Origin: a virus
Lineage: Duplodnaviria > Caudoviricetes
IMG/VR virus record: IMGVR_UViG_3300029305_005257
Span: 4,853 to 68,852 of that record
Length of the DNA: 64,000 nucleotides
Strand: one strand, 5' to 3'
Under the pieces are notes generated by a model. That model had not been told where the DNA came from. It saw nothing but the letters and a program-made list of their open reading frames with translations, and ran no database searches. The translations under genes and the position numbers were made by a program. Positions 2,447 to 60,791 of this stretch are shown here, piece after piece. Position 1 is the first letter of the stretch. Each line of letters starts with the position of its first letter.

Positions 2447-5400
2447 ATGTCTAGTCTTATTAGTGGTAAAGAACTTCAGCAATCACTATTAGAATTAGAA
2501 AATAAAACTACTTCAGCAATAGCTGAAGTAAGAGGAGTATTAAATCCTAAGCTCATTGCTCAGGGTATAGAACCATCTACTGAAAATACATATAGTTCAG
2601 TTATCGGAGATTTAGCGAAATTAAAGACAGTAGAAGATCATCCTTGTAATGGTTCATTGATGGATATAAATTTTGAAGAAAATAAATTATTCTCAAAAAC
2701 ATTATTACCATCTAATGCAGTCATGTTTAGTAATACACGTTCAGTATTTGTAGAAGAGGGACTACTCTACGTATTAGATTTTGATGTAGAAACTTTACAA
2801 ACCACAAATAAAAAAATCTATAAAATAGAACCTTTGTGGAATTTAGCATCTGAATCAAATCTTAAAATTATTAAAGGATTTGATAACAATATTTTCGTTT
2901 ATTCTGATTTTGATTCATATGCTCTGTGCTTATATGGAGATGGAATTGATAAAGACGGAGATATCAAATATTCATTTATTACGTTTGGTAGACCTTTAAC
3001 TATCAAAGATTTTAGAATAGGTGGTACATCGTTAGCATTTATTACAACTGGTAATGATTATTACAGAATTGATTTGTATGAACCATCAAAAGATTATGAT
3101 TTAAGCAACGGCTTATTCAAAGTAAATATGTACTTTGAATCAAATTGTATTTGTGATGGAATGGTAGATTATGTAGGTAGTAAATATGGTGAAGTATATT
3201 TACTTGATAGAATAACAAGAGAATTTAACTTTATTATTGATATTACTGGTAATAGAGATTACGATGCTCATAGATTTAATAGAAATAATAATCCTAATCT
3301 ATACATTCCGATTCTTGCATTCTGTAAGAATTTCAGAAGAATATCGTTTGTTACAGCAGATATACTTTATACTTCATATTCATATTATAATGTAGATTTT
3401 GAAAAAGGTCTTAGTACATTTACACTTCCTATCAAAATGAGTATAGCAGATTTTGCGGTAAATAGAGTGGATTATCACGCTAGAGCTATTGTCTATGGAT
3501 TAGATGAGAATCTCAATGCGATTGCTTATTCGTTTACCAGATCTGATGAACCATTAGAAAAGGTTATATTGGGAGATGAAGATAAATTTCCTCAGTATGT
3601 AACCTTTGGTGTAATTGATGATGCAGCTGTTATGATATCAGTATATGAAAATACAGTGAAAGCTTCCGATTGCTATTCTGAGGAAGATATCATAAATAAC
3701 AATATTAAAGATTATAAATATACTACTATGACTATGAGTTATGCAGTATACGAGAATAAAAATTATACATTCTATCCAGAATTTAATCCTTTATTTATTC
3801 CTAGTAAGGTAGTATCTAATAACAATGCTACAGTAGTAATTGGAGAAACTGGTATATCTCCATTATTTAATATAGCAGTGACTAAAGATCAAATTCATTG
3901 GAATATTGTAAATATACCAAAAGATATTGCAATCAATGTACAGGATATTGCAGTTAACGATAATCTTTTTGTAATGTGTGGTTACGATAAGGATATTCTC
4001 ATAAGTAATTATGGATATAATTGGGAAAGTATAAAAGTATATACAACTGGGCTTATTGCTAATGTATCTATTACATATAATAAGTACCATGATAGATTTT
4101 ACATCTTAAGCGATGATATGGAAATCGTTGAATTTAATCCAAATGATAAATCTTTAAGATACCATGCTAATATTGATATCACCGATGTAATCGGGGAAAA
4201 AATTATGAGTTATAGAGAAAAACTGCTTATGACTGCCAAAATGAATGACGGAACAGTGAACACATTTGTTAGTAAAAATGATTTGGAAAATCCAGACCCA
4301 ATGGTATCGACATTTATTATTAGAGAATTTTCTTTCTTTAATGATGTAGAAGGATTATATGCTATTCATGCATCCGTAATTGATATGATAGAAGTTGGGG
4401 AAGAAACATATGCAGTATACCGTTTAGATAAACCGTATATGGAAACTCCTGTTCTTAAGAATGACAAGAATCTTATATACGGTGTATTAGTTAGACATTT
4501 TACTTTTGATAAAGATCTATCATATGGAGGTATATTGATTGATGATTGTTTGTTTAGAGTAGCATTTGCCTACGATCCAAATAAGCCTTTAACAATCACA
4601 AAGTATCTGAATAATATCATTATCAATCACGCAAGAGATGATTTAAAAGTACATATAGGTGATTTAAAATCAAATACAGTAGTATGTCAAGAAATTGATG
4701 GTTCTATGTATGGTGTAGTAATTACAACTGCCAAATGTTCATCTGTATCTTCAGGTTATATTCATTTCTTACAGGAGAATATTAATAAGTTTACTAGAAT
4801 GAGTTATATCTTATCTAGTGATAAACCATACATTCCCATGGTAAGTGATTTAGATTTGGACATTGGTAAAAAAGCTTATCAGATCAAGGAATATAATCTT
4901 GAATCTGTATCTACTGGTCCTGATAAGAATGGTGATAAAGAGCATTATCCAGTTTTATTGAGTAATCTGGAAGATGTAAGTTGTGGACCTATTATTTATA
5001 CAGATAGATTTATTAAATTAGCTAATAGTAATATTGCTCATACAAGTAAAGATGGAATGAACTGGGGCGTAATTAGAATGCCAGTTTCTGGTCAGTGGAC
5101 TGATATTGCATATGGTAATGGAGTATATGTGGCAGTAAGATATATAAATACATTATATGGAGAAGTATATTATTCATTTAATCTTTATGATTGGTATAAG
5201 GCGAATATCCCTGCAATAACTCAGGGATGGAGTGAAGTTATGTTTGATAATGGATTATTTGTAGTAAGTGCTACAAATGTTGCTGGTAAATATGTATTAG
5301 AATCTACAAATGGAATTAACTGGACAGCAAATGAGTTTAATAGCAATATCAATAAGATTAGAATGTGCCATAGTAATACTAATACAGTTCTATACTTTAC

Positions 5401-6199
5401 CATGAATTCAATATCTCCAGATGGTGGATATTATCGGAGTGATACAAAGACTTTGTACACAAGTACTAATGGAGATGGTACAATTATAACAAATCTTATT
5501 GATATGACAGGAAAAACTGAAGATGATAATACAAATGTGGAGTTTTCATTTTTATTAGAATCAAATGGTGTAGTTAGAAGATATTGTAACGGAGAAGCTG
5601 ACGATATATGTCAAATTCCAGGCAATCCTACAACAATGAGAATGATAAAAGATGAACATGGTAGATACATTTTATTCTTCTATAAAGTAGGGGATTATCA
5701 TTTGTATATGGAAATACTCAATAGTCCAGACGAGTTATGGAGACCTATTAAGATAGATTTATTAAGTCCTATTGAATTAGACTCATCTCATTTGATTTGC
5801 TATTATGATGATAAAATCATCATTGGTACAAAGATTCCTTCTATTATTAATTTAAGAGATACTTACTCTGATATAATCGAGGGAACGTTTATTGTTATGG
5901 CAGGTGAAATTCATAGAGAATCTTTACCATTTACACCAGATCATGTATTTTTATTTGGTGCAAAATCTTATATTTGTGATAGTAAATTTCTTCTTGGGGA
6001 AATTCATTCGGAAAAAATAGTAACTGTTAACGGAAGTAATCAGTCTACTCTTACTACATTTAATAATACGAATAGTAGCATTGGAGTTAGATCTGAATCA
6101 GAGAATAAGATTTTAACTAAGGCTTTTGTATTCAAGAATAATACAATGAGTGATAGACATATTAATTACATCGCAATAAAAGAAGATCATTATAAATAA
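2447..6199 (+). CDS. Large beta-propeller-rich protein, probable tail appendage/receptor-binding protein
   Basis: Start placed at ATG 2447 behind GAGGTG. The N-terminal segment (LIAQGIEPSTENTYSSVIGDLAKL) resembles tail-fibre N-terminal anchors. Asp-box-like repeats TKDQIHW, SKDGMNW, STNGINW and WTDIAYGNGVYVAV. Confidence 0.55.
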   Translation: MSSLISGKELQQSLLELENKTTSAIAEVRGVLNPKLIAQGIEPSTENTYSSVIGDLAKLKTVEDHPCNGSLMDINFEENKLFSKTLLPSNAVMFSNTRSVFVEEGLLYVLDFDVETLQTTNKKIYKIEPLWNLASESNLKIIKGFDNNIFVYSDFDSYALCLYGDGIDKDGDIKYSFITFGRPLTIKDFRIGGTSLAFITTGNDYYRIDLYEPSKDYDLSNGLFKVNMYFESNCICDGMVDYVGSKYGEVYLLDRITREFNFIIDITGNRDYDAHRFNRNNNPNLYIPILAFCKNFRRISFVTADILYTSYSYYNVDFEKGLSTFTLPIKMSIADFAVNRVDYHARAIVYGLDENLNAIAYSFTRSDEPLEKVILGDEDKFPQYVTFGVIDDAAVMISVYENTVKASDCYSEEDIINNNIKDYKYTTMTMSYAVYENKNYTFYPEFNPLFIPSKVVSNNNATVVIGETGISPLFNIAVTKDQIHWNIVNIPKDIAINVQDIAVNDNLFVMCGYDKDILISNYGYNWESIKVYTTGLIANVSITYNKYHDRFYILSDDMEIVEFNPNDKSLRYHANIDITDVIGEKIMSYREKLLMTAKMNDGTVNTFVSKNDLENPDPMVSTFIIREFSFFNDVEGLYAIHASVIDMIEVGEETYAVYRLDKPYMETPVLKNDKNLIYGVLVRHFTFDKDLSYGGILIDDCLFRVAFAYDPNKPLTITKYLNNIIINHARDDLKVHIGDLKSNTVVCQEIDGSMYGVVITTAKCSSVSSGYIHFLQENINKFTRMSYILSSDKPYIPMVSDLDLDIGKKAYQIKEYNLESVSTGPDKNGDKEHYPVLLSNLEDVSCGPIIYTDRFIKLANSNIAHTSKDGMNWGVIRMPVSGQWTDIAYGNGVYVAVRYINTLYGEVYYSFNLYDWYKANIPAITQGWSEVMFDNGLFVVSATNVAGKYVLESTNGINWTANEFNSNINKIRMCHSNTNTVLYFTMNSISPDGGYYRSDTKTLYTSTNGDGTIITNLIDMTGKTEDDNTNVEFSFLLESNGVVRRYCNGEADDICQIPGNPTTMRMIKDEHGRYILFFYKVGDYHLYMEILNSPDELWRPIKIDLLSPIELDSSHLICYYDDKIIIGTKIPSIINLRDTYSDIIEGTFIVMAGEIHRESLPFTPDHVFLFGAKSYICDSKFLLGEIHSEKIVTVNGSNQSTLTTFNNTNSSIGVRSESENKILTKAFVFKNNTMSDRHINYIAIKEDHYK

Positions 6200-6200
6200 A

Positions 6201-6236
6201 AAAAAGAGTAGGGTTGTTTTATTCCCTACTCTTTTT
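6201..6236. terminator. Bidirectional terminator
   Basis: aaaaagagtaggg-N10-ccctactcttttt between convergent genes. Confidence 0.85.
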
Positions 6237-6244
6237 GCCTATGG

Positions 6245-6391
6245 CTATCGAAAGACATAAGGACATATATCCTTTCTCGGACATGAACGCCATTCCGGGC
6301 ATGGACCAGGAATGGCGTAAAGACATCTATTGATATCTTTAACCTCCTTTCTTTCGATATTTTTATTATTTTTTTCTTTAATAATATTCAT
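6245..6391 (-). CDS. Small Cys-rich protein (48 aa), not in the ORF track
   Basis: MNIIKEKNNKNIERKEVKDINRCLYAIPGPCPEWRSCPRKDICPYVFR, with AAGGAGG 6 nt upstream. Confidence 0.6.
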   Translation of the reverse strand: MNIIKEKNNKNIERKEVKDINRCLYAIPGPCPEWRSCPRKDICPYVFR

Positions 6392-6404
6392 ATTTTTCCT
6401 CCTT

Positions 6405-6454
6405 CTGTCCCTATCTATGAGGGGCTAAATAAATTTTATTTTGAAAGGATATAT
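6405..6454 (-). repeat. 50-bp early-gene leader, copy 1 (copy 2 at 56044-56093)
   Basis: Both copies share the identical 19-mer ctgtccctatctatgaggg and the identical 20-mer tttattttgaaaggatatat. Confidence 0.85.
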
Positions 6455-6496
6455 AAACAAGAAATTATTAATAAAATAAAATCATATTTAAAATTT

Positions 6497-6533
6497 AAAG
6501 GAAGGAAAGTGATTTTCATCACCTCCTTCCTTT
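6497..6533 (-). terminator. Terminator-like hairpin
   Basis: aaaggaaggaaagtgat / atcacctccttccttt, an imperfect inverted repeat after the 6544-6918 gene. Confidence 0.6.
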
Positions 6534-6543
6534 TATGCACAGT

Positions 6544-6918
6544 TTAGAATTCTATATACTCTCTAAACTGTACAAATTCGAAAGCAACTGTCTTGGTTCC
6601 ATCTGGATTTTCAGTTACTTTTCTCTCACTGGTAGCTGCTACACATCGGATTCCTTCTTGCTGGAACGCATTTACCACGCAATAAACCAAGGTGGATTCA
6701 CCTTGGATTAATACCGTAATATTCTCTGGTTCCTCTTTTTGTTTAATGCTTCCAACAATATCGGCAGTGTATGAATGAATACCTTTAGGTGTAGCATCTG
6801 CTGGAACATTTGGAAATGCCCAATCAACGATTTCACCATATGCTTCTGCCGCTTTCTTTTGTTCTTCACTCCACTTTAATGATGGGTGATTAGTAATATT
6901 GTAAAATAATTTTGCCAT
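6544..6918 (-). CDS. Csx20-like (CRISPR type III-associated ring-nuclease-like) protein
   Basis: Motif chain N-x-T-N-H-P-S-x-x-W-S-E-E-Q, YGEIVD-x-x-FP, LIQGE-x-T, GIRCVAATSER, E-x-x-DG, FEFVQFREY matches the family as I recall it. Not database-checked. Confidence 0.65.
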   Translation of the reverse strand: MAKLFYNITNHPSLKWSEEQKKAAEAYGEIVDWAFPNVPADATPKGIHSYTADIVGSIKQKEEPENITVLIQGESTLVYCVVNAFQQEGIRCVAATSERKVTENPDGTKTVAFEFVQFREYIEF

Positions 6919-7006
6919 AATTGGCCTCCTTTTCTGCCCTCTTGGGCTATAAATTTTATTTAGAAGAGAGCTGAATAGCTTTTACCAACTCTTCTATTTC
7001 ACCTAT

Positions 7007-7037
7007 ATTATATATATTCAAAAAAAGAAGATTTACG
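7007..7037 (-). promoter_or_regulatory. Putative early promoter (CGTAA-N16-TATATATAAT)
   Basis: Minus strand CGTAAATcttctttttttgaaTATATATAAT. The same bipartite motif recurs upstream of other small genes. Confidence 0.65.
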
Positions 7038-7088
7038 GATAAAAAAGAGAGAGTTTGTTTTACTTCTAACTCTCAAAAGAAGCTCTTT

Positions 7089-7397
7089 TTAATCGAAAAA
7101 TACTGTAATTTCTAAAACATTTTCACCATACTCTTTAGCATTCATATCCCATCGTGCTTGTATTTGTTGTATATTTGGAAACATGACGTGTTCGATATTT
7201 GCAATACCATTCTCCACATTAAAAGTTACACTTTTTTCTTTAATACGACCGGAAATTGTTACATCTGTTCCATATCCCGAATTTAACCAGGATAACGGTG
7301 TTACATTAAAATAATAGTAACACCCGTCTTTTCCTTTAAGATAAAATGCTCCTACTGCTTGATTAATGTTTGACACTACGTATTCTACTTTTAACAT
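7089..7397 (-). CDS. Hypothetical protein (102 aa)
   Basis: ORF with RBS-like AGAAGG and the same leader architecture as its neighbours. Confidence 0.75.
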   Translation of the reverse strand: MLKVEYVVSNINQAVGAFYLKGKDGCYYYFNVTPLSWLNSGYGTDVTISGRIKEKSVTFNVENGIANIEHVMFPNIQQIQARWDMNAKEYGENVLEITVFFD

Positions 7398-7520
7398 ATT
7401 TTACCTTCTTTCTGCACTATTTGGTGCTTTAAAATAATATTTAGTAGAGACCTAAATAGGTTCCTATAACTCTTTTACTTCACTTTTATTATATAATCAA
7501 AAGTGATTTACGCATAGAAA

Positions 7521-7552
7521 ATAAGAGTACCTATCAAATAAGGTACTCTTAT
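7521..7552. terminator. Terminator
   Basis: ataagagtacct-N8-aggtactcttat. Confidence 0.75.
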
Positions 7553-7567
7553 CATTACATAAATGAA

Positions 7568-7954
7568 TTAAGATTTCAATTCTCTAAATCTTACAAATTT
7601 AGCAATTCTGCTACATTTATATTTGTAATCTTTATCTGTAACCACTATCTGAAATAATGGAAATACACATTTAATGCCTATATTATTTAAGCTGGACACG
7701 ATTTTAATTATAAATACGATGTCTCCCGAAGGTAAAAATGTTATATCTTCTCCATTTAATTTTCTTACGAGCAATTCACCGGCTAATTTCTCTGCATAAT
7801 TTAATATTTCTTCATCGGAAGATTGTAGTATAGTTGGGTTAAAATCTGGTTGCATAATATACTCAATTTCACCATACAATTCTTTTCCAGATTGTAACAA
7901 TACTTCGTCTATTTGCTCGTTGGTTGTGCAGAATATTATAAATTTCTTTGCCAT
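7568..7954 (-). CDS. Divergent paralog of the Csx20-like protein
   Basis: Shares MAK-x-F, YGEI, IT-x-L-x-x-G, GI-x-CV, VT and FV-x-FRE with 6544-6918 but lacks NHPS and ATSER. Confidence 0.6.
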   Translation of the reverse strand: MAKKFIIFCTTNEQIDEVLLQSGKELYGEIEYIMQPDFNPTILQSSDEEILNYAEKLAGELLVRKLNGEDITFLPSGDIVFIIKIVSSLNNIGIKCVFPLFQIVVTDKDYKYKCSRIAKFVRFRELKS

Positions 7955-8041
7955 GATATAGGCTCCTTTCTTTTTTATATTTGTATACCAAAGATAGATA
8001 TAGCGTTATGTATCTCAGTTGTTTCTTTAGTATCACCGTAA

Positions 8042-8593
8042 TTAAAATTGGTTTCTAGCTAAGGCTTTGCATTGTTCCAGATATTGCTTATTAATAGCTT
8101 CCAAAGCATTCCAGTCATATTTACATTTGAATATTCTGGAAATTGTATTCCATGTTCTAATTCGATATTTCAAATCAGTTTCCAATGGAAGGAATTTAGT
8201 AGATTCGACAATATGAGCAATATTAATCCCAAAATCTAAAAGCTCTTCATAAGACATTTTGGTATCACTCTTATAATCTATTCTAGCTAATATTCTATTA
8301 ACTATATTAGTGAGTTTTTCATTATGTGTATAAAAACTTCTTTCTGCTACATAAAGAATGCATTCTGTATAGAATGCTCTATCTACTTTTTCAAAAGTTA
8401 TTTCTTTTCCATAGATATTTTTCATATGGAATATAAGTTCATCATACTTCCTTTTAGTAACTTTATTAAGCTCAATATCCTTATTTATTTCCTCACTGTA
8501 TAGTCTCCGAACTGTTCTTCTCCAGATGATATAGTATTCTCGTGAATTAATCACATTACCGCATAATCCATATCTCCATTTTGTATCTGACAT
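8042..8593 (-). CDS. Hypothetical protein (183 aa)
   Basis: ORF with GGAGG RBS. Confidence 0.75.
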   Translation of the reverse strand: MSDTKWRYGLCGNVINSREYYIIWRRTVRRLYSEEINKDIELNKVTKRKYDELIFHMKNIYGKEITFEKVDRAFYTECILYVAERSFYTHNEKLTNIVNRILARIDYKSDTKMSYEELLDFGINIAHIVESTKFLPLETDLKYRIRTWNTISRIFKCKYDWNALEAINKQYLEQCKALARNQF

Positions 8594-8623
8594 ATTTATT
8601 CCTCCGTATATAATTTGTATTTT

Positions 8624-9223
8624 TTATTTTATTTTGTCATTCCTCCAACTCACCATAGCACCCGGTAATATCTTTTTATTTTCAGGATTTAAGATATAAC
8701 TCAAATACCAAAGTGAAGCTGCATCTCTTTCTCCAATTGGTTCGAAACCTGGATTTTCAAATTCTGATTTCCATAATTCTGGTTGATATGATACTCTAAT
8801 AATTATATCAAATGCCGTACTAAATTTAGTTAATTTCCTAATATGGAAACTGCTTTCATTACCATTAAATGAGACTCCTGTCGTTACGACTTCGGATAGT
8901 TGATCTGGAAAGGTAATTGATACTTTCAACATTGGAAGAATTGTCTCTTTTAACCATTTTTTACAATTTTCTACTTCTTTCTCATTCTCTGCATCGACCT
9001 CGTGTGTTAGAATAAAGGTATTATAATCGGGCTGAGGTATTACTAGATTAAATTCCTTTGGTTTACATATACCAATTTCTACGTACGGAATTCTATTCTC
9101 ATCTTTACCCTCTTCAATGTGAAATACAGCATAATCATTTACTAGTGCGTCATATATAATATCCCTCATAAGTGGATCACACTCAGTTTCAATTTGTGAT
9201 ACAATACAATTTTTTTTATACAT
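8624..9223 (-). CDS. Hypothetical protein (199 aa)
   Basis: ORF with AAAGGAG RBS and TATATATGAT upstream. Confidence 0.75.
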   Translation of the reverse strand: MYKKNCIVSQIETECDPLMRDIIYDALVNDYAVFHIEEGKDENRIPYVEIGICKPKEFNLVIPQPDYNTFILTHEVDAENEKEVENCKKWLKETILPMLKVSITFPDQLSEVVTTGVSFNGNESSFHIRKLTKFSTAFDIIIRVSYQPELWKSEFENPGFEPIGERDAASLWYLSYILNPENKKILPGAMVSWRNDKIK

Positions 9224-9357
9224 GTTTTCTCCTTTCGAAATATGAAAATAATTTTTTATTTACATTAAAATCATATATATTTCATTATTCTTTTTCAAAT
9301 AAAAAAAAAAAAAGAGAAGCTTGCCCAACTTCTCTAAACCTCTTAGAGTCATGATTT

Positions 9358-9915
9358 TTACTCTGCAGAATGTAAGCTACCTGTATATGCTAAGATTATA
9401 TCCCCATAGTCAAATATAGATTTATTTTTAATCATATTTGCTATGTCGAAATTTAATCTTCTTCCACCTATGCTACCAATATTAAGAACATCGTGTTCTT
9501 CAAATAAACGTAACATTCTGTCGATATGTGGGATCCATTCAAATAAATCTTCGTCGTCCCACTTTAATTCGACAACTTTCCAGATGAAAGTGAATGTCTT
9601 ATCTCTAGTTACAGGATGCATACAAGCTCTCAAGCAAGAGCATAAGTATGTTCTTAAAAGTTCTCTCTGTACATTTTCAGCACCGTAGTACTTTTCAATG
9701 AACTTACGATAAACTTCATCTTTGTAACCGTTGAGCTTAAGAATTCTAACAGCATTCATAGTAGCTCTTTCTTCTGCAGAAGTTAACTTGCCGGATTCTA
9801 GACGTTCTTCTGCTTCTTCCAAAAATGGAATTCCGTACAGTCTTTCATATACAGTATGAAAACTGCCGTGCATAATTTCGTCATGGTTCATAAAATTTTC
9901 AATTCTTGGATTCAT
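9358..9915 (-). CDS. Hypothetical protein (185 aa)
   Basis: ORF with AAAGGAGG RBS and TATATATTAT upstream. Confidence 0.75.
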   Translation of the reverse strand: MNPRIENFMNHDEIMHGSFHTVYERLYGIPFLEEAEERLESGKLTSAEERATMNAVRILKLNGYKDEVYRKFIEKYYGAENVQRELLRTYLCSCLRACMHPVTRDKTFTFIWKVVELKWDDEDLFEWIPHIDRMLRLFEEHDVLNIGSIGGRRLNFDIANMIKNKSIFDYGDIILAYTGSLHSAE

Positions 9916-10086
9916 AATTAGAATCCTCCTTTCATAAAATAATTTTATAAACCTAACCCGGTCAAACCTTATTTGCTACAATAATAATATATAATTTAAA
10001 AATCATTTGTTTCTAAAAGTGACTATACTTGAGATTAATCGAATTAAAGAGTAACACCTGAATAAAAATATGAAAGGAGTAGTATA

Positions 10087-10833
10087 ATGAACGAATTCAG
10101 AAAAGAAGGAGAAAATATTCTAATTAATGTTCCATATGCTGAGGCATATATTCCACTGGAATTATTTCAAGATACAAAGAGTTCTATGTCTATGATATAT
10201 GGTGATGGTATAATTACTATGGGTATTTTTTATATGAGATTTTATAAATCTGAAGAAGAAGCAGACGAAAATAGAGATTCTGTTCCACTAAGAACTTTCA
10301 GTTATCCTAGTTCTATATTTACTTTACCATCTTCATATGAAGATGAGACGCTTGTACTTAATGGAGTAGAAGAAAAAGTAAAGACTCTTAAGTATTATCA
10401 AGATGATGTAATGATGGAGTATCATACAGTTAAAAACATTCTTAACTGTGAAGCATATCTTGACGCTTTGATTAAAGCTAAATTCCCAAATAGTATGAAA
10501 TATGAAGATTTATTCATTAACTGGCATGAAAATTTTGTGCAGAATGGATTTCATCCGGGAACTTTAGCTGTAGTATTACAGATTATCATAGCTGAAAATG
10601 CTAGATATAAAAAGGATCCGTCTATTCCATATAGACGATATGCAGCTTATGCAAAAGAGATCAATCCAGCAGATTACGAATTGGTAAATATGAATACAAT
10701 CGCAGCTAATAACTCAGTATTTAGTGCTATCGGTTTTGAAAGATTCAAAGAGAAACTGTCTACGTCAATTACAATGAGTAAAACTAATGCTGCACAAAAT
10801 ATTAGTCCATTGGAAAAAGTAATCTTATATTAA
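10087..10833 (+). CDS. Putative RNA polymerase beta' extreme C-terminal-like fragment (248 aa)
   Basis: VVLQIIIAENAR...ELVNMNTIAANNSVFSAIGFERFKEKLSTSI resembles beta' HIEVIVRQM...SFISAASFQETTRVL and the C-terminus of 26390-28405. Confidence 0.5.
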   Translation: MNEFRKEGENILINVPYAEAYIPLELFQDTKSSMSMIYGDGIITMGIFYMRFYKSEEEADENRDSVPLRTFSYPSSIFTLPSSYEDETLVLNGVEEKVKTLKYYQDDVMMEYHTVKNILNCEAYLDALIKAKFPNSMKYEDLFINWHENFVQNGFHPGTLAVVLQIIIAENARYKKDPSIPYRRYAAYAKEINPADYELVNMNTIAANNSVFSAIGFERFKEKLSTSITMSKTNAAQNISPLEKVILY

Positions 10834-10847
10834 AGGGGGTATTACAA

Positions 10848-11291
10848 GTGTCACGGAGAAGGAGAAGACGTTCAAAGAAAACCTGTTCTCTCACAGAAAA
10901 TCTAATTCAAGTATGTCAAAGTATCGTTAATGCATATGAATCCGATATATGTGCAGATGTTATTAGGTTGGAGAAAACAAAAGGTGAAAAATATCAAATG
11001 CTTAATAGAGAATTCTATGTTGCTGCATCTATAGATTCTAATATAGAATATAAAACACATTCATATCAAGATGCAATAATGCATTGCCCAGTAGGATATA
11101 TGATATTCACTAATGAGGGTATAAAAGTATATCCTCAGCCAAATAGAAGAGTGCCTGCTGGTAGAGCATATACATTACGTATGCATAGCAAAGATAAGAA
11201 TTTAGGTACATATAGAGATTTACAAGATGCAATTAATAACTGTCCGATAAATTGTGGGGTATACGATGATAACGGATTAAGAGTATATTAA
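10848..11291 (+). CDS. Hypothetical protein with two copies of a ~28-aa repeat
   Basis: GTG start. Repeats HSYQDAIMHCPVGYMIFTNEGIKVY and GTYRDLQDAINNCPINCGVYDDNGLRVY. Arg-rich N-terminus. Confidence 0.7.
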   Translation: MSRRRRRRSKKTCSLTENLIQVCQSIVNAYESDICADVIRLEKTKGEKYQMLNREFYVAASIDSNIEYKTHSYQDAIMHCPVGYMIFTNEGIKVYPQPNRRVPAGRAYTLRMHSKDKNLGTYRDLQDAINNCPINCGVYDDNGLRVY

Positions 11292-11326
11292 AAAAGAGGG
11301 TAGCAAATTTAATGCTACCCTCTTTT
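11292..11326 (+). terminator. Terminator
   Basis: aaaagagggtagca-N7-tgctaccctctttt. Confidence 0.85.
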
Positions 11327-11383
11327 AATCCTTATTTTCTTTTATTTTACACTGAATATAAATGAACTGTTTATTTTAAAATT

Positions 11384-11412
11384 GATACAGTAAATTAAAT
11401 CAATCCATTTTA
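11384..11412 (+). promoter_or_regulatory. Conserved late leader/promoter of the tail sheath gene
   Basis: GATACAGTAAATTAAATCAATCCATTTTA, 26/29 identical to the element upstream of the capsid gene. Confidence 0.75.
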
Positions 11413-11458
11413 TTATTGTAAAATGATTAGTCTTTAAAGAAAGCGAGGTAAATAAAAT

Positions 11459-13372
11459 ATGCCAAGACCATATCAGATTATTCCGAAGAATAGTTATCCT
11501 ACGGAAGAAACGTATGTAAATGACAATACTGTTGTGACTAACTCATTAGTTGATGTAGCTGCTAACACAGTATCTTTTTTATATGTCGTTAACTCCCCAA
11601 AAGGCAAAGATGGTGTAGTACAAACCATTGAGGGTCAACAGGATTTTGTTAATAAGATCGGTATTGGACCTTATTCATTATACGGTCAATCCTTAATCAG
11701 TGCTTATGCAGTTGCATCTACTGGTAATGCGATTGTTCATGTACTTCGTGTTGCAGCTCCTGATGCCACTTATGCAAACATTACAGTGTGTGCTAAGTTT
11801 ATGCATCTTTTAGGAGAAGGGTTAGCAGTTAAGTTTGTTGCCCATAGTTCTAAACTTACTGATTTGGATGAACTCGAAAGTGCTTATACACCTTCTGATT
11901 CACCAGACGATGAAGGATTTACTGAAGTTAAATTATTTTCTGTTGCGGCATTAGGTAGAGGTAAATATGGTAATAATTACCAGGTTAGATTATCTTCTAT
12001 CAGAACTGCAGATAAGGAAAATAACTTTAAGAATTATCAGTTTGAAATTTATGAATCTGATGTTGTTATTGATCAGAAGGAATCTTTCCATGTTTGCTTC
12101 TCAGAAAATGCATTAATTGGTGATACATCATATTATGCAGATGCTGTAATCGGAGATCCTGTGTCTGGTTCTGAATACGTGAAATTTGTATCATATCCAG
12201 AGGGATTTGAAAGAATTACAGCTGCTTACAACGATGCAGTGAATTTGATGAATAATTCCATTGTTACTGATGGTAACGGTAATCAAACCAACCCTAACCA
12301 AGGAAACTATTTGAATTTTACTGTTGATGATATTGATATTTTTGGAGGTACCAATAAGTACAACAACAAGGCACTTGATTGGTATACAATTGATACGACA
12401 GCTGATGATTGCATCAATCCTTATGGTGCAGATGGTTATCCAGATATTATTCTTGCAGATGGTTCTGATGGTGCATTAGATGCATCTAAACCGATTACAG
12501 AGAGAGAAAAGGTATTGGATGATTTATATAAGAAGGCATTTTCTGGAGAAATTGATCCTATGATCAAATCCAAGAATAAGTTCCCTACTTCTATTATTCC
12601 AGACTGTGGATACTCTTTTGAGATTAAGAATTTGATTAAAGCATTAAATGACGCTCGAGGTGACTCCATTGCATTATTTGATATGGGTACTCAGATTAAG
12701 ACTCATCAGAGTGTATTGGATACGGGAAAGGCAAACTTCCTTAATTATGTAAGTACGTATGAAAGCGTTGATGGATATTGCGGTAAGATTAGAGATCCAT
12801 ACAGCAAGAAGATTATTACTGTAACTTCTACTTATGCTCTTTGCTTATTATATGCTAAACATTTCGCTACTTTCAATGGAAAGCATATTCCATTAGCAGA
12901 CAACGACTATGGTAATCTTGAAGATGTATTCTTATCTAATACGATTTATCCTGTATTCGATGAAGATATTCATTCCGATATGATGAATGAATTAATTGAT
13001 GCTAGAATTAACTTTGCAAGATATAACGCAAATCAGGAAACAAAGCGTTCTACTCAGACAACTAGACAGGAACAGTTATCCATGTTATCAGAACTTCATA
13101 ATTGTTTTATTCTTAAAGATGTTAAGAGAGCAATGGAACGTCTCTGTGCAACAAATCGTTTTGACTTTGCAGATAGCATGGATATTATTAGATTTAATAA
13201 TGCTGCAGAAAACGTCGCATCTAAGTTTAGAGGACAAGTTGTGTCTATTGAAGCTAAATACGGTCAGACAGAATACGAAAAAGAACGCTCTATCATTCAT
13301 TTGTATGTTACAATTGTTAACCGTAGTATTGTTAAGACTACAATTATCGAAATCGATGTTAATAGAGAATAA
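11459..13372 (+). CDS. Tail sheath protein
   Basis: 637 aa. GPYSLYGQ N-terminus, RGKYGNNYQVRL, DGSDG, and a C-terminal sheath domain (LSELHNCFILKDVKR...TTIIEIDVNRE). Followed directly by a tube-like gene. Confidence 0.85.
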   Translation: MPRPYQIIPKNSYPTEETYVNDNTVVTNSLVDVAANTVSFLYVVNSPKGKDGVVQTIEGQQDFVNKIGIGPYSLYGQSLISAYAVASTGNAIVHVLRVAAPDATYANITVCAKFMHLLGEGLAVKFVAHSSKLTDLDELESAYTPSDSPDDEGFTEVKLFSVAALGRGKYGNNYQVRLSSIRTADKENNFKNYQFEIYESDVVIDQKESFHVCFSENALIGDTSYYADAVIGDPVSGSEYVKFVSYPEGFERITAAYNDAVNLMNNSIVTDGNGNQTNPNQGNYLNFTVDDIDIFGGTNKYNNKALDWYTIDTTADDCINPYGADGYPDIILADGSDGALDASKPITEREKVLDDLYKKAFSGEIDPMIKSKNKFPTSIIPDCGYSFEIKNLIKALNDARGDSIALFDMGTQIKTHQSVLDTGKANFLNYVSTYESVDGYCGKIRDPYSKKIITVTSTYALCLLYAKHFATFNGKHIPLADNDYGNLEDVFLSNTIYPVFDEDIHSDMMNELIDARINFARYNANQETKRSTQTTRQEQLSMLSELHNCFILKDVKRAMERLCATNRFDFADSMDIIRFNNAAENVASKFRGQVVSIEAKYGQTEYEKERSIIHLYVTIVNRSIVKTTIIEIDVNRE

Positions 13373-18076: not shown

Positions 18077-19963
18077 CTACTCCTCAAAATACTTTAAATC
18101 GTCTCCTACTTCTGTTAATATGTCGGATGCACTAGGTAATCCCAATACAACCTCTCCAAATGATAATACATCACCTTCTGACCACAATTCCATTACCCAT
18201 GCAGATGATTTTATTTTTGAATATGTTTTTTCATCTTTAGCGTCAACTATCCAAAAATTATTACAGAATGGCATCTTAACATCATCTGGATCTAGTAAGA
18301 ATACTTTACCAACTAAGGATTCGTTATTGGAATTAGCTACCATAACGTATGATGGGTACTCAGCACCAATATCTTCATCTATCACATGTTCGTGCACATA
18401 TTTATTTTCTTTACCCATTATTATTGTACCAGATGATTTAATATGTGCTGGTGACATTACATATGCACCTGAGAATTTTTCATCTTTCTTTTTCTTATCA
18501 TCTTCTTCATCGTCATCTGATTGATCATATGAATCAATTAATGTAAATTCTTCTTCATTATAGTCTTCTTCATTGTCAAATTTAACTGAGAATTTTGGTT
18601 CTGGTAATTTCATTTTTGATTTATTAGAACCCATTACGCTATTACATTCCCTATACGCAAAATCTCTAATCGCCATAGTTTCAGTAATAGTCGTAGTAAA
18701 TATTTCGTAGTTTAAGACACAGTCGTTACATATGGTATCAGTTACAAACATCATATCATTATTTTTACTTTCAATTCCATACTGTAAAAGGACATCTTTT
18801 ATGTTATATAGGATAAAGGTCCAAAAATCTAGATAACAGAAAAATTTAAATTGACCATATTCTGAATAATTTAACTTTTCATCATTTAGTACATCTTTTG
18901 CAACTTGATTCAATCTAAGAGATTGTAATGAACCTCTAGATACTCTTATACCTGCATATACAGGTAGTTGGTCGATTGGAATAGATGAGGAGAAGATGTT
19001 CGATATATGTCTTCTTTTTTGTGCTTTTGGATTTTTATCTTCTTTAAAGTAAAAATTTCTACCTTTTCCAATCAACTCTGCATCAGATATAATTGATGCC
19101 GGATCCTTTCCATGATATCTAAGACGTTCAATCATCTGATTTTCATCGTAAGGTAAGTTCCATACTAACCAGAAATCAGGAGAACATGCTTTAATAGTTT
19201 CAAATATGAATGTAATTAAATCAACTTCATCTTCAAACATGAATATCTGATAATCTATATAGCCATAAGATTCATCGAAGTTTTTATGGCATTCTGCTAT
19301 AAAATCGTCAACGTGTTCTATGAAATAATCTACTTGATTATAATACTTGGTTCTCAATGATTCGTAATATTCATATTTTTTATCAGATGGAGATAAATGA
19401 GGAATATGATCTTTCCTCAGTACTGCTGTATACATAGTTTTTCTATCACCATCTAAGAAGGATATACAATTAATAGGATCTGCACCAGGTATAACCCTAC
19501 CAACAGACTGAAACATGTCTGATTCAATATCGAGATATCCTAAAGATGGTTTCTTTGGAGCATCATTCCCATATTCCAATTTAAAGTGCATTAGATAGAA
19601 ATGCTCTATTTGAATATCTAGCTGAAATACATATGGACTAATTTTTGCATCATCAGGATTCTTCAATCCTAATAATTTAGCTGCCTCCTTATATCTAGAT
19701 TTATATCTAATCCTATGACACGTACAATGGTCTTTCTTAATAAAATTCTTAATATGTGTATAGTTTCGATACTCTGGTTTAACTATCCATATTTCATAAT
19801 ATGGATTCTCGATGGTTTCTACATATTTTTTACCAGTGTCTAAATCCTTATATACAAAATCTAAAATATCTGGTTGACTAAAATCGTTATAGGAACCACG
19901 GGTGTAATAAACATGGATAGGCATAAGGTTCTTTCCCTCCATGTTATTGGGTAAAAACTTCAT
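18077..19963 (-). CDS. DNA polymerase B, N-terminal part (3'-5' exonuclease plus motif A)
   Basis: ExoI YLDIESD, ExoII VWNLPYD, ExoIII YNIKDV, FSGAYV, motif A variant DEDIGAEYPS. No motif B or C. Confidence 0.9.
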   Translation of the reverse strand: MKFLPNNMEGKNLMPIHVYYTRGSYNDFSQPDILDFVYKDLDTGKKYVETIENPYYEIWIVKPEYRNYTHIKNFIKKDHCTCHRIRYKSRYKEAAKLLGLKNPDDAKISPYVFQLDIQIEHFYLMHFKLEYGNDAPKKPSLGYLDIESDMFQSVGRVIPGADPINCISFLDGDRKTMYTAVLRKDHIPHLSPSDKKYEYYESLRTKYYNQVDYFIEHVDDFIAECHKNFDESYGYIDYQIFMFEDEVDLITFIFETIKACSPDFWLVWNLPYDENQMIERLRYHGKDPASIISDAELIGKGRNFYFKEDKNPKAQKRRHISNIFSSSIPIDQLPVYAGIRVSRGSLQSLRLNQVAKDVLNDEKLNYSEYGQFKFFCYLDFWTFILYNIKDVLLQYGIESKNNDMMFVTDTICNDCVLNYEIFTTTITETMAIRDFAYRECNSVMGSNKSKMKLPEPKFSVKFDNEEDYNEEEFTLIDSYDQSDDDEEDDKKKKDEKFSGAYVMSPAHIKSSGTIIMGKENKYVHEHVIDEDIGAEYPSYVMVANSNNESLVGKVFLLDPDDVKMPFCNNFWIVDAKDEKTYSKIKSSAWVMELWSEGDVLSFGEVVLGLPSASDILTEVGDDLKYFEE

Positions 19964-20119
19964 AGCATATTTTCTCCTTTCTAAAAATCACCTTAGTGAT
20001 TATAAGTGTGTCAATTTATACATTTTGATTTATATTTGTTTTAACCACCTTATAACTCTAAGATTCATTTTAATAATATATAAATGAATCATTTAATGAA
20101 TAAAGAGGAGGAATTTATA

Positions 20120-56093: not shown

Positions 56094-56114
56094 CCTTTCT
56101 TATCATCACATAAT

Positions 56115-56145
56115 TAATATATATTCGAGGGTGGGGATAATTACG
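56115..56145 (-). promoter_or_regulatory. Putative early promoter
   Basis: CGTAATtatccccaccctcgaaTATATATTAAT. Confidence 0.6.
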
Positions 56146-56515: not shown

Positions 56516-56637
56516 ATTTGGCTCCTTTCTGTATCATTTAAGATACTTAAAATATATTTAATATGGATGGAAGGACAATTCCTTCCTCTGTATCACGCTA
56601 ATTATGTATATTTGAATAAAATATCTATGACGTATAA

Positions 56638-60682: not shown

Positions 60683-60791
60683 GATAGCTCCTCCTTTTTG
60701 TAATTTTATAGTTTGCTTTTTCTTTTTTGTTACATATAAATGATATATAATTATATTAAATTTATTTATCGTATAATATCATTTAGTTCGG

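Follow-up and report, generated by a model that had tools for sequence, protein, structure and literature searches.

A stand-alone Csx20-like candidate ring nuclease in an AR9/PBS1-like jumbo phage

Csx20 is a small enzyme used by bacteria to switch off type III CRISPR alarm signals. We analyzed an intact csx20-like gene (6544-6918, minus strand) carried by a distant member of the AR9/PBS1-like jumbo phages; the gene is a member of the Csx20 protein family but is not CRISPR-associated by its location. The most probable reading, to which we assign a probability of roughly 0.6 by analogy with the characterized enzyme, is that the gene encodes a stand-alone Csx20-type ring nuclease that would be made early in infection and would blunt the type III signaling of the host. 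The evidence for this reading comes from the anatomy of the gene, its conserved residues and predicted fold, and the genomic surroundings of its cellular and viral relatives, which are presented below together with a degenerate paralogue found in the same phage.

The carrier phage

The analyzed stretch of DNA (64 kb; hereafter, the window) comprises bases 4853-68852 of a 68,852-bp IMG/VR virus record, the completeness of which was estimated by CheckV at ~28%, implying a genome of roughly 250 kb. In agreement with its listing as a virus, the record is of phage origin: PHROG matches in the window include the tail sheath, the large terminase, a split DNA polymerase, and the beta subunit of a multisubunit RNA polymerase, the RNA polymerase being likewise split. 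The terminase is nearest to those of the Bacillus jumbo phages BpSp, Goe21, PBS1, and AR9 and of the Staphylococcus S6 group, at ~27-32% identity. Based on the PHROG matches and the affinity of the terminase, we concluded that the record represents a distant member of the AR9/PBS1-like jumbo phages. AR9-like jumbo phages encode two RNA polymerases. No tRNA gene was found in the 64-kb window, and a megablast search of window positions 5000-12000 against GenBank phages returned zero matches.

The preliminary description of this DNA had noted the absence of cas genes and of a CRISPR array from the window and had called for a search for a phage-borne type III locus in the rest of the genome. The first statement holds, since neither Csm1-type nor Cmr2-type Cas10 is present in the entire 68,852-bp record and no CRISPR-like tandem repeat array is present in the 64-kb window; the search for a type III locus, by way of Cas10, was negative over the record, which corresponds to ~28% of the phage genome. 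The AcrIII-1 family (DUF1874, PF08960) was matched neither by the csx20-like protein nor anywhere in the record, in line with the initial view that this known viral ring nuclease belongs to a different family.

Anatomy and expression signals of the csx20-like gene

The csx20-like gene is an intact open reading frame with an ATG start that encodes 124 amino acids, a stand-alone CARF-like candidate ring nuclease. A ribosome-binding site, AAGGAGG (6925-6931, minus strand), can be read in the sequence 6 nt before the start codon. The gene has its own intrinsic terminator, as had been proposed, composed of a 16-bp hairpin (6497-6533, minus strand) and a U-rich tail (6496-6490), with UUUAAAUUUU directly 3' of the hairpin. 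The predicted RNA fold of this terminator has a free energy of -21.4 kcal/mol and a z-score of -5.5, none of 200 shuffled sequences was as stable, and the same site was also picked up by a terminator scan.

Upstream of the gene, an AR9-type early (virion RNA polymerase) promoter-like element of the form GAATATATATAAT-N6-G is located at 7000-7019 (minus strand) and would leave a leader of ~80 nt. The element, GAATATATATAAT-ATAGGT-G when read from 7019 to 7000, shares 11 of 13 positions with the AR9 early consensus established by experiment, AAATATATATTAT-N6-G(+1) (PMC5312081), and contains the +1 G. The consensus is borrowed from a phage whose terminase is only ~32% identical to that of the window phage; the analogy is reasonable because the record represents a distant AR9-like jumbo phage, and the promoter can thus reasonably be termed early-type. 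The preliminary description had proposed a strong early-type promoter. The early-type part of that proposal is retained by analogy with AR9. A strong promoter of the host type was rejected: a sigma-70 promoter scan of the minus strand (the coding strand of the gene) from 6919 to 7088 gave zero sites.

Across the window, 12 matches to the AR9 early consensus were observed versus 8.3 ± 3.3 expected, so that their total is not above chance. Seven of the 12 are intergenic, though intergenic sequence makes up 7.2% of the window; six of these seven precede a gene of the same orientation by 35-82 nt. Three matches fall inside the block of small genes at 6.2-10 kb. The placement of the matches in the window is non-random, whereas the count alone is not. 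Further matches with two mismatches were found at 20066-20085, 56107-56126, 56594-56613, and 60733-60752 (all on the minus strand), each positioned 35-103 nt 5' of the start of a minus-strand gene, one of which encodes a DNA polymerase fragment (18077-19963).

A terminator-like hairpin followed by a T-run, assigned to the upstream gene (7089-7397), is located at 7041-7074 (minus strand; stem GAGAGTT/AACTCTC, then TCTTTTTT). Its predicted fold is weak (z = -1.3), and we only tentatively propose that it insulates the csx20-like unit from the upstream gene. With its promoter-like element and terminator, the csx20-like gene forms a single-gene unit amid small orphan genes. The GC content of the block of small genes (0.31) equals that of its flanks; given this match and the intact expression signals, the gene is apparently maintained and not a recent insertion.

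An exact copy of AATAAAATTTAT is common to the leaders of the csx20-like gene (6936-6960, minus strand) and of the downstream gene for a 48-aa protein (6415-6440, minus strand), and in both leaders it is followed by AGCCC and a small GC hairpin right before the ribosome-binding site. It is possible that early transcripts have this 5'-UTR element in common; a common motif has been reported for the early leaders of AR9 (PMC5312081). The 48-aa open reading frame (6245-6391, minus strand) is likewise equipped with a promoter-like element, a leader motif, and a terminator of its own. The encoded protein has no family matches, contains four cysteines in the C-terminal half (C-x8-C-x6-C-x6-C), and could be a small metal-binding protein.

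Local Pfam and PHROGs searches with the csx20-like protein and its six neighbors returned nothing usable: matches to GARS_N and DUF3019 were dismissed as noise (E ~0.15), and no Aca-type regulator of the RHH or HTH class was found next to the gene. None of its neighbors recurs beside the viral homologues described below.

Family membership and conserved residues

The chain of motifs originally noted in the 124-aa protein is present in full, comprising NHPS-LK-WS-EE-Q (residues 10-20), YGEIVD (27-32), and QGE (72-74) and, in the C-terminal half, ATSER (95-99), DG (106-107), and FVQFREY (115-121). The attribution of this chain to the Csx20 family is corroborated by a match to the NCBIfam profile NF040559 (CAS_Csx20) with an E-value of 8.4e-12, which speaks against a chance resemblance; residues 35-121 of the protein align with positions 37-124 of the 124-position profile. 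The score of 45.5 bits is below the 70-bit equivalog cut-off of NF040559. All 50 cellular relatives tested also match this profile, at 27.9-51.5 bits, and none of them reaches the cut-off, including many that share a contig with Cas10. Because all of these relatives score below the cut-off, the low score is best viewed as a property of this bacterial and viral clade relative to the seed of the model. We therefore assign the csx20-like protein with high confidence to the Csx20 family in the broad sense, this confidence referring to family membership and not to the NF040559 equivalog.

In a precomputed table, PF27247 is assigned to the csx20-like protein and to all 11 of its nearest relatives, which share 42-52% identity with it. 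A profile built from these 12 sequences recovers 2,857 cluster representatives (2,168 at E ≤ 1e-10), among them many proteins of ~550 aa with the Csx20 domain at one end. No sequence found is more than 53% identical to the csx20-like protein; for metagenomes, the closest Csx20-like sequence shares 47% identity with it. In tblastn searches of 50,697 GenBank phage records, the csx20-like protein and two other family members gave zero matches, and a fourth query gave one weak match.

Sixteen positions are conserved at a level of at least 85% in both 24 viral and 75 cellular sequences, namely N7, N10, H11, W16, Q20, A24, D32, F35, P36, G73, E74, R99, F113, F115, F118, and R119, and the csx20-like protein retains all 16. 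These residues presumably form the cyclic oligoadenylate (cOA) site, and from their conservation the active site is presumed to be retained. The completeness of the 16 family positions despite a sequence divergence of at least 47% argues for the ancestral ligand and chemistry.

Predicted fold

An AlphaFold2 model of the csx20-like protein, obtained with the 12-sequence alignment, has a pLDDT of 94.9 and a pTM of 0.84. The elements follow the order β-α-β-α-β-α-β-β, with strands at residues 4-9, 29-34, 67-71, 91-103, and 109-120 and three helices, and the model forms a five-stranded β-sheet with flanking helices, as in the CARF-like derived Rossmann fold. Csx20 has been described as a CARF-like five-stranded sheet resembling Sso2081 (PMC12409355), with which our model agrees.

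A comparison with CARF structures, another step called for at the outset, was carried out against the PDB using an all-against-all structural aligner. CARF and SAVED domains make up much of the top 50 matches at Z-scores of 5.2-7.6, all of them below 8, a range in which a shared Rossmann-like arrangement alone can score. Among these are SAVED-CHAT (Z 7.6), Cdn1 with cA3 (6.7), the SAVED domain of Cap5 (6.5), Can2 with cA4 (6.5), Csm6 (6.3), VC1899 (6.2), Cad1 (6.2), Cami1 (5.7), CalpL (5.6), Cap4 (5.6), the Crn1 ring nuclease Sso2081 with cA4 (5.5), and SSO1393 (5.4). A Foldseek search of the PDB gave weak and mixed matches, the best being a permuted ribose-binding lobe (E 2.6e-4), and a sequence search of the PDB with the family profile found no related solved structure. 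The predicted fold of the csx20-like protein is CARF-like, evidence that by itself is only suggestive. The conserved polar residues map to the β1-α1 loop, the β3-α3 loop, and the last two strands and, judging from the topology of the model, would lie on the usual ligand-binding face of CARF domains. The best viral structural match in BFVD is A0A5Q2WBQ4, an unnamed viral protein of 128 aa (TM 0.70, 23% identity, E 1.9e-7) that is probably another viral Csx20-like protein.

Type III surroundings of the cellular relatives

We recovered 80 cellular loci encoding proteins with 36-53% identity to the csx20-like protein, mostly from gut and rumen Bacteroidota (Prevotella), Selenomonadaceae, Veillonella, and Lachnospiraceae. 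A Cas10-like gene lies within 10 kb in 44 of the 80 loci, as counted by an iterated search with a custom profile that was seeded on two Cas10 proteins from these loci; the seeds match TIGR02578 at E-values of 3e-147 and 1e-55, and placement of Cas10 on the same contig was confirmed with curated profiles for at least 14 loci in a partial cross-check. Beside the closest cellular relatives, at Bacteroidota loci such as L032 (2029-3519) and L052 (2577-4076), the Cas10-like genes are short (~490-560 aa), match only positions ~210-415 and ~480-753 of the Csm1 profile, and are apparently missing the N-terminal portion.

Directly upstream of the csx20-like gene of the closest relatives lies a gene for a CARF effector of ~440-456 aa that scores above the cut-off of TIGR02221 (cas_TM1812/DxTHG); at locus L043, this position is taken by a Cas_APE2256 CARF protein instead. 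That Csx20 domains are also fused to CARF effectors, as stated in the preliminary description, is borne out by L039 (575 aa; 8639-10366), a fusion of a TIGR02221 effector with a Csx20 domain, and by P0015, in which TIGR02221 cas_TM1812, a CARF domain of the Csx1 type, is joined to a Csx20 domain at the C-terminus. Csx1-type CARF effectors are thus adjacent to the cellular relatives or fused with them, as would be expected of a cOA off-switch. Both fusions place the Csx20 domain at the C-terminus of a Csx1-type effector in proteins of ~555-575 aa, which, by analogy with the published Csx1-Crn2 fusion, suggests a self-limiting effector. Another protein, P0013 (293 aa), contains two tandem Csx20 domains.

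Stand-alone occurrence in viruses

A pattern-limited scan identified relatives of the csx20-like protein on 30 IMG/VR contigs. Csm1-type Cas10 was found in none of these 30 viral records, nine of which are at least 90% complete. The 85 nearest neighbors of the viral homologues are mostly small unknown proteins, accompanied by single HTH or RHH regulators, methylases, and nucleotide-metabolism genes. There are no cas genes among these 85 neighbors, and they show no pattern of a recurrent Aca-like gene, the HTH and RHH matches being single.

In a quick tree of 100 sequences, the viral members are scattered, with at least 10 changes of label. The csx20-like protein falls in the half dominated by Bacteroidota, and no starred clade contains it. 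The gene had originally been described as captured from a host; a best identity of 53% and a place in the tree outside any starred clade point to no particular donor or host. Two viral or metagenomic contigs carry more than one family member: a 51-kb viral contig with terminal repeats (L002) encodes two Csx20-like genes 4 kb apart (8001-8363 and 12188-12532) that are sisters in the tree, and a 119.5-kb metagenome contig has two copies 25 kb apart (L112 and L114). Duplication of Csx20-like genes on mobile elements may be recurrent.

A degenerate paralogue in the same phage

A degenerate Csx20-like paralogue of 128 aa (7568-7954, minus strand) is located ~650 bp upstream of the csx20-like gene on its coding strand, as the last gene of a three-gene unit extending from 9223 to 7568. 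The unit is headed by an AR9-type early promoter-like element (9263-9282, minus strand) that has one mismatch and is the best match in the window, and no terminator is present between the genes starting at 9223, 8593, and 7954. The paralogue aligns with the csx20-like protein at 27% identity (BLASTP, E 4e-7) and with the family profile at a probability of 96.7% (hhalign, E 4e-10). It retains G73, F115, V116, F118, and R119, including an FVRFRE motif, and lacks H11, the P12-S13 loop, W16, Q20, D32, and R99, with D in place of E74. Its AlphaFold2 model shows the same order of strands and helices as the csx20-like protein (pLDDT 81.8), a result biased by a folding alignment composed of Csx20 family members. 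No relatives of the paralogue were found in any collection searched.

Three identities can be considered for the paralogue: a pseudo-enzyme, a partner subunit, or a protein whose ligand has changed. We also considered a two-part anti-signaling module, in which the intact Csx20-type enzyme would work together with the paralogue; we regard such a module as a speculative and rather improbable arrangement. As a heterodimer, the two proteins might shift the substrate range or turnover, e.g., toward cA3, cA6, or another nucleotide signal; alternatively, the paralogue might lack catalysis and target the CARF effectors of the host as a binder or decoy. If it existed, the module would pair a viral ring nuclease with a pseudo-enzyme and would equip jumbo phages, whose DNA is otherwise a difficult target, with a dedicated countermeasure against RNA-guided type III immunity.

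Proposed role and alternative explanations

According to the proposed mechanism, the csx20-like protein would form a homodimer that binds cyclic tetra-adenylate (cA4) on a face made up of the β1-α1 loop (N10-H11-P12-S13, W16, and Q20), the β3-α3 loop (G73-E74), and the strands carrying R99 and R119. Metal-independent cutting of cA4 would generate linear products with 2',3'-cyclic phosphate ends. Since the single-gene unit sits behind an early-promoter-like element, which would be read by the virion RNA polymerase, the enzyme would accumulate once phage transcripts appear, the moment at which the type III complex (Cas10) of a host that we infer to carry such a system would begin to synthesize cA4. 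With cA4 destroyed, the effectors that depend on it, those of the Csx1 type among them, would remain inactive, which would allow the phage to avoid dormancy or abortive infection. Early, phage-borne destruction of cOA, as put forward in the preliminary description, fits the anatomy of the gene and the contrast between the viral and cellular contexts of the family. Ring-nuclease activity of the protein is likely by homology, and an anti-type III role in this phage has somewhat better than even odds, again by analogy.

The protein might act on cyclic oligonucleotides but serve mainly outside type III immunity, by degrading or sequestering the cA3 of CBASS-type systems or by working chiefly as a sponge rather than as a fast nuclease. 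Cutting of cA3 by the characterized Csx20 at higher enzyme concentration (PMC12409355) and the presence of CBASS SAVED domains (Cap5, Cap4, and Cap14) among many of the top structural matches are consistent with such a role. However, it is with type III loci and Csx1-type effectors, not with CBASS, that the cellular relatives are associated, every polar residue conserved in the family is retained, as expected of a working enzyme, and sponging has been argued to be a poor strategy against the large amounts of cOA made by type III systems (PMC13148439). We consider this explanation unlikely. A use of the Csx20 fold for an unrelated purpose, such as the binding of another nucleotide, or a neutral passenger with no role in defense is quite unlikely as well: all 16 family positions are kept despite a divergence of at least 47%, the gene does not differ from its flanks in GC content, and its expression signals are intact. 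These observations have to be set against the isolation of the lineage, which is at most 53% identical to anything found, and against the neighboring paralogue, which demonstrates that the fold can lose the conserved site in the same phage.

It is also conceivable that the gene is a regulator and not an anti-CRISPR, serving as the off-switch of a type III CRISPR-Cas or other cOA system of the phage's own that would be encoded in the missing 72% of the genome. We regard this explanation as very unlikely, given that neither type of Cas10 occurs in the 68.8-kb record and no repeat array in the 64-kb window, that the gene forms a single-gene unit among small orphan genes instead of adjoining a CARF effector, and that Csm1-type Cas10 was found in 0 of the 30 viral records searched. 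In its favor are the limited extent of the record (~28% of the genome) and the fact that cellular members of the family are nearly always intrinsic regulators. A host-directed, Csx20-type ring nuclease accordingly remains our preferred reading of the csx20-like gene.

Comparison with known systems

The identity of Csx20 as a ring nuclease for cA4 has been confirmed by experiment (Hoikkala et al., 2025; PMC12409355), which substantiates the statement in the preliminary description that Csx20 degrades cyclic oligoadenylate. The characterized enzyme degrades cA4 fully in EDTA buffer, yielding linear products with 2',3'-cyclic phosphate ends, degrades cA3 at a 10-fold higher enzyme concentration, and does not degrade cA6 (PMC12409355). 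The protein studied here resembles Csx20 (NF040559; PMC12409355) in its size of ~120 aa, a single CARF-like domain with a five-stranded β-sheet and flanking helices, a significant profile match, the same set of conserved residues, and close cellular relatives that are found beside Csx1-type effectors in type III loci. In contrast to Csx20, it is borne by a jumbo phage as a single-gene, early-type unit without nearby cas genes, its score, like those of the whole clade from gut and rumen bacteria, falls short of the equivalog cut-off, and it is at most 53% identical to the relatives found.

The proposed role is shared with AcrIII-1/Crn2 (DUF1874, PF08960), a small dimeric enzyme of viruses that disarms type III signaling by destroying cA4; in family and fold, however, AcrIII-1 is unrelated to the csx20-like protein. 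With Crn1 (Sso2081/Sso1393), the csx20-like protein has in common a CARF-type fold (Z 5.5 for Sso2081 with cA4 and 5.4 for SSO1393) and an expected metal-independent cleavage of cA4, but it has no detectable sequence similarity to Crn1, is smaller, and carries different motifs (NHPS...W...Q / GE / TSER / FVQFRE). AcrIII-2 has been placed among the proteins of the CARF/SAVED superfamily (PMC13148439). A phage Csx20 active against cA4 would extend the viral ring nucleases named in the literature consulted, AcrIII-1 and AcrIII-2, by a CARF-derived enzyme. RNA-targeting type III CRISPR is still effective against jumbo phages that evade DNA-targeting defenses, and a 2026 review of jumbo phages makes no mention of ring nucleases (PMC13282480); expression of a Csx20-type enzyme early in infection would give an AR9-like jumbo phage a concrete answer to type III signaling.

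Stand-alone Csx20 proteins on mobile elements have been published before. Csx20 is present in 4 of 28,114 phage genomes (PMC12409355), and csx20 homologues occur in Aca14-regulated acr-like operons, for which co-option of a cas gene for counter-defense was proposed (PMC13551039, 2026). The description of the csx20-like gene as a distinct class of anti-CRISPR was therefore an overstatement of its novelty. In the literature searched, we found no demonstration of anti-CRISPR activity for a phage Csx20. Our survey, with Csm1-type Cas10 in none of 30 viral records versus a Cas10 no more than 10 kb away for 44 of the 80 cellular relatives, firms up the published suggestion. Like the csx20 genes of the four phage genomes and of the csx20-aca14 operons (e.g., in Pasteurella multocida), the gene described here encodes a stand-alone Csx20 on a mobile element. 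It differs from the csx20-aca14 operons in that it has no adjacent Aca-type regulator and is apparently controlled by an early promoter of the phage polymerase. Its carrier differs from those published in being an AR9-like jumbo phage that encodes a multisubunit RNA polymerase, and in this phage the csx20-like gene is accompanied by a degenerate second copy. The concept is thus already in print for phage Csx20, and the features that set this member apart are the AR9-like jumbo carrier, the apparent control by an early promoter, and the degenerate paralogue.
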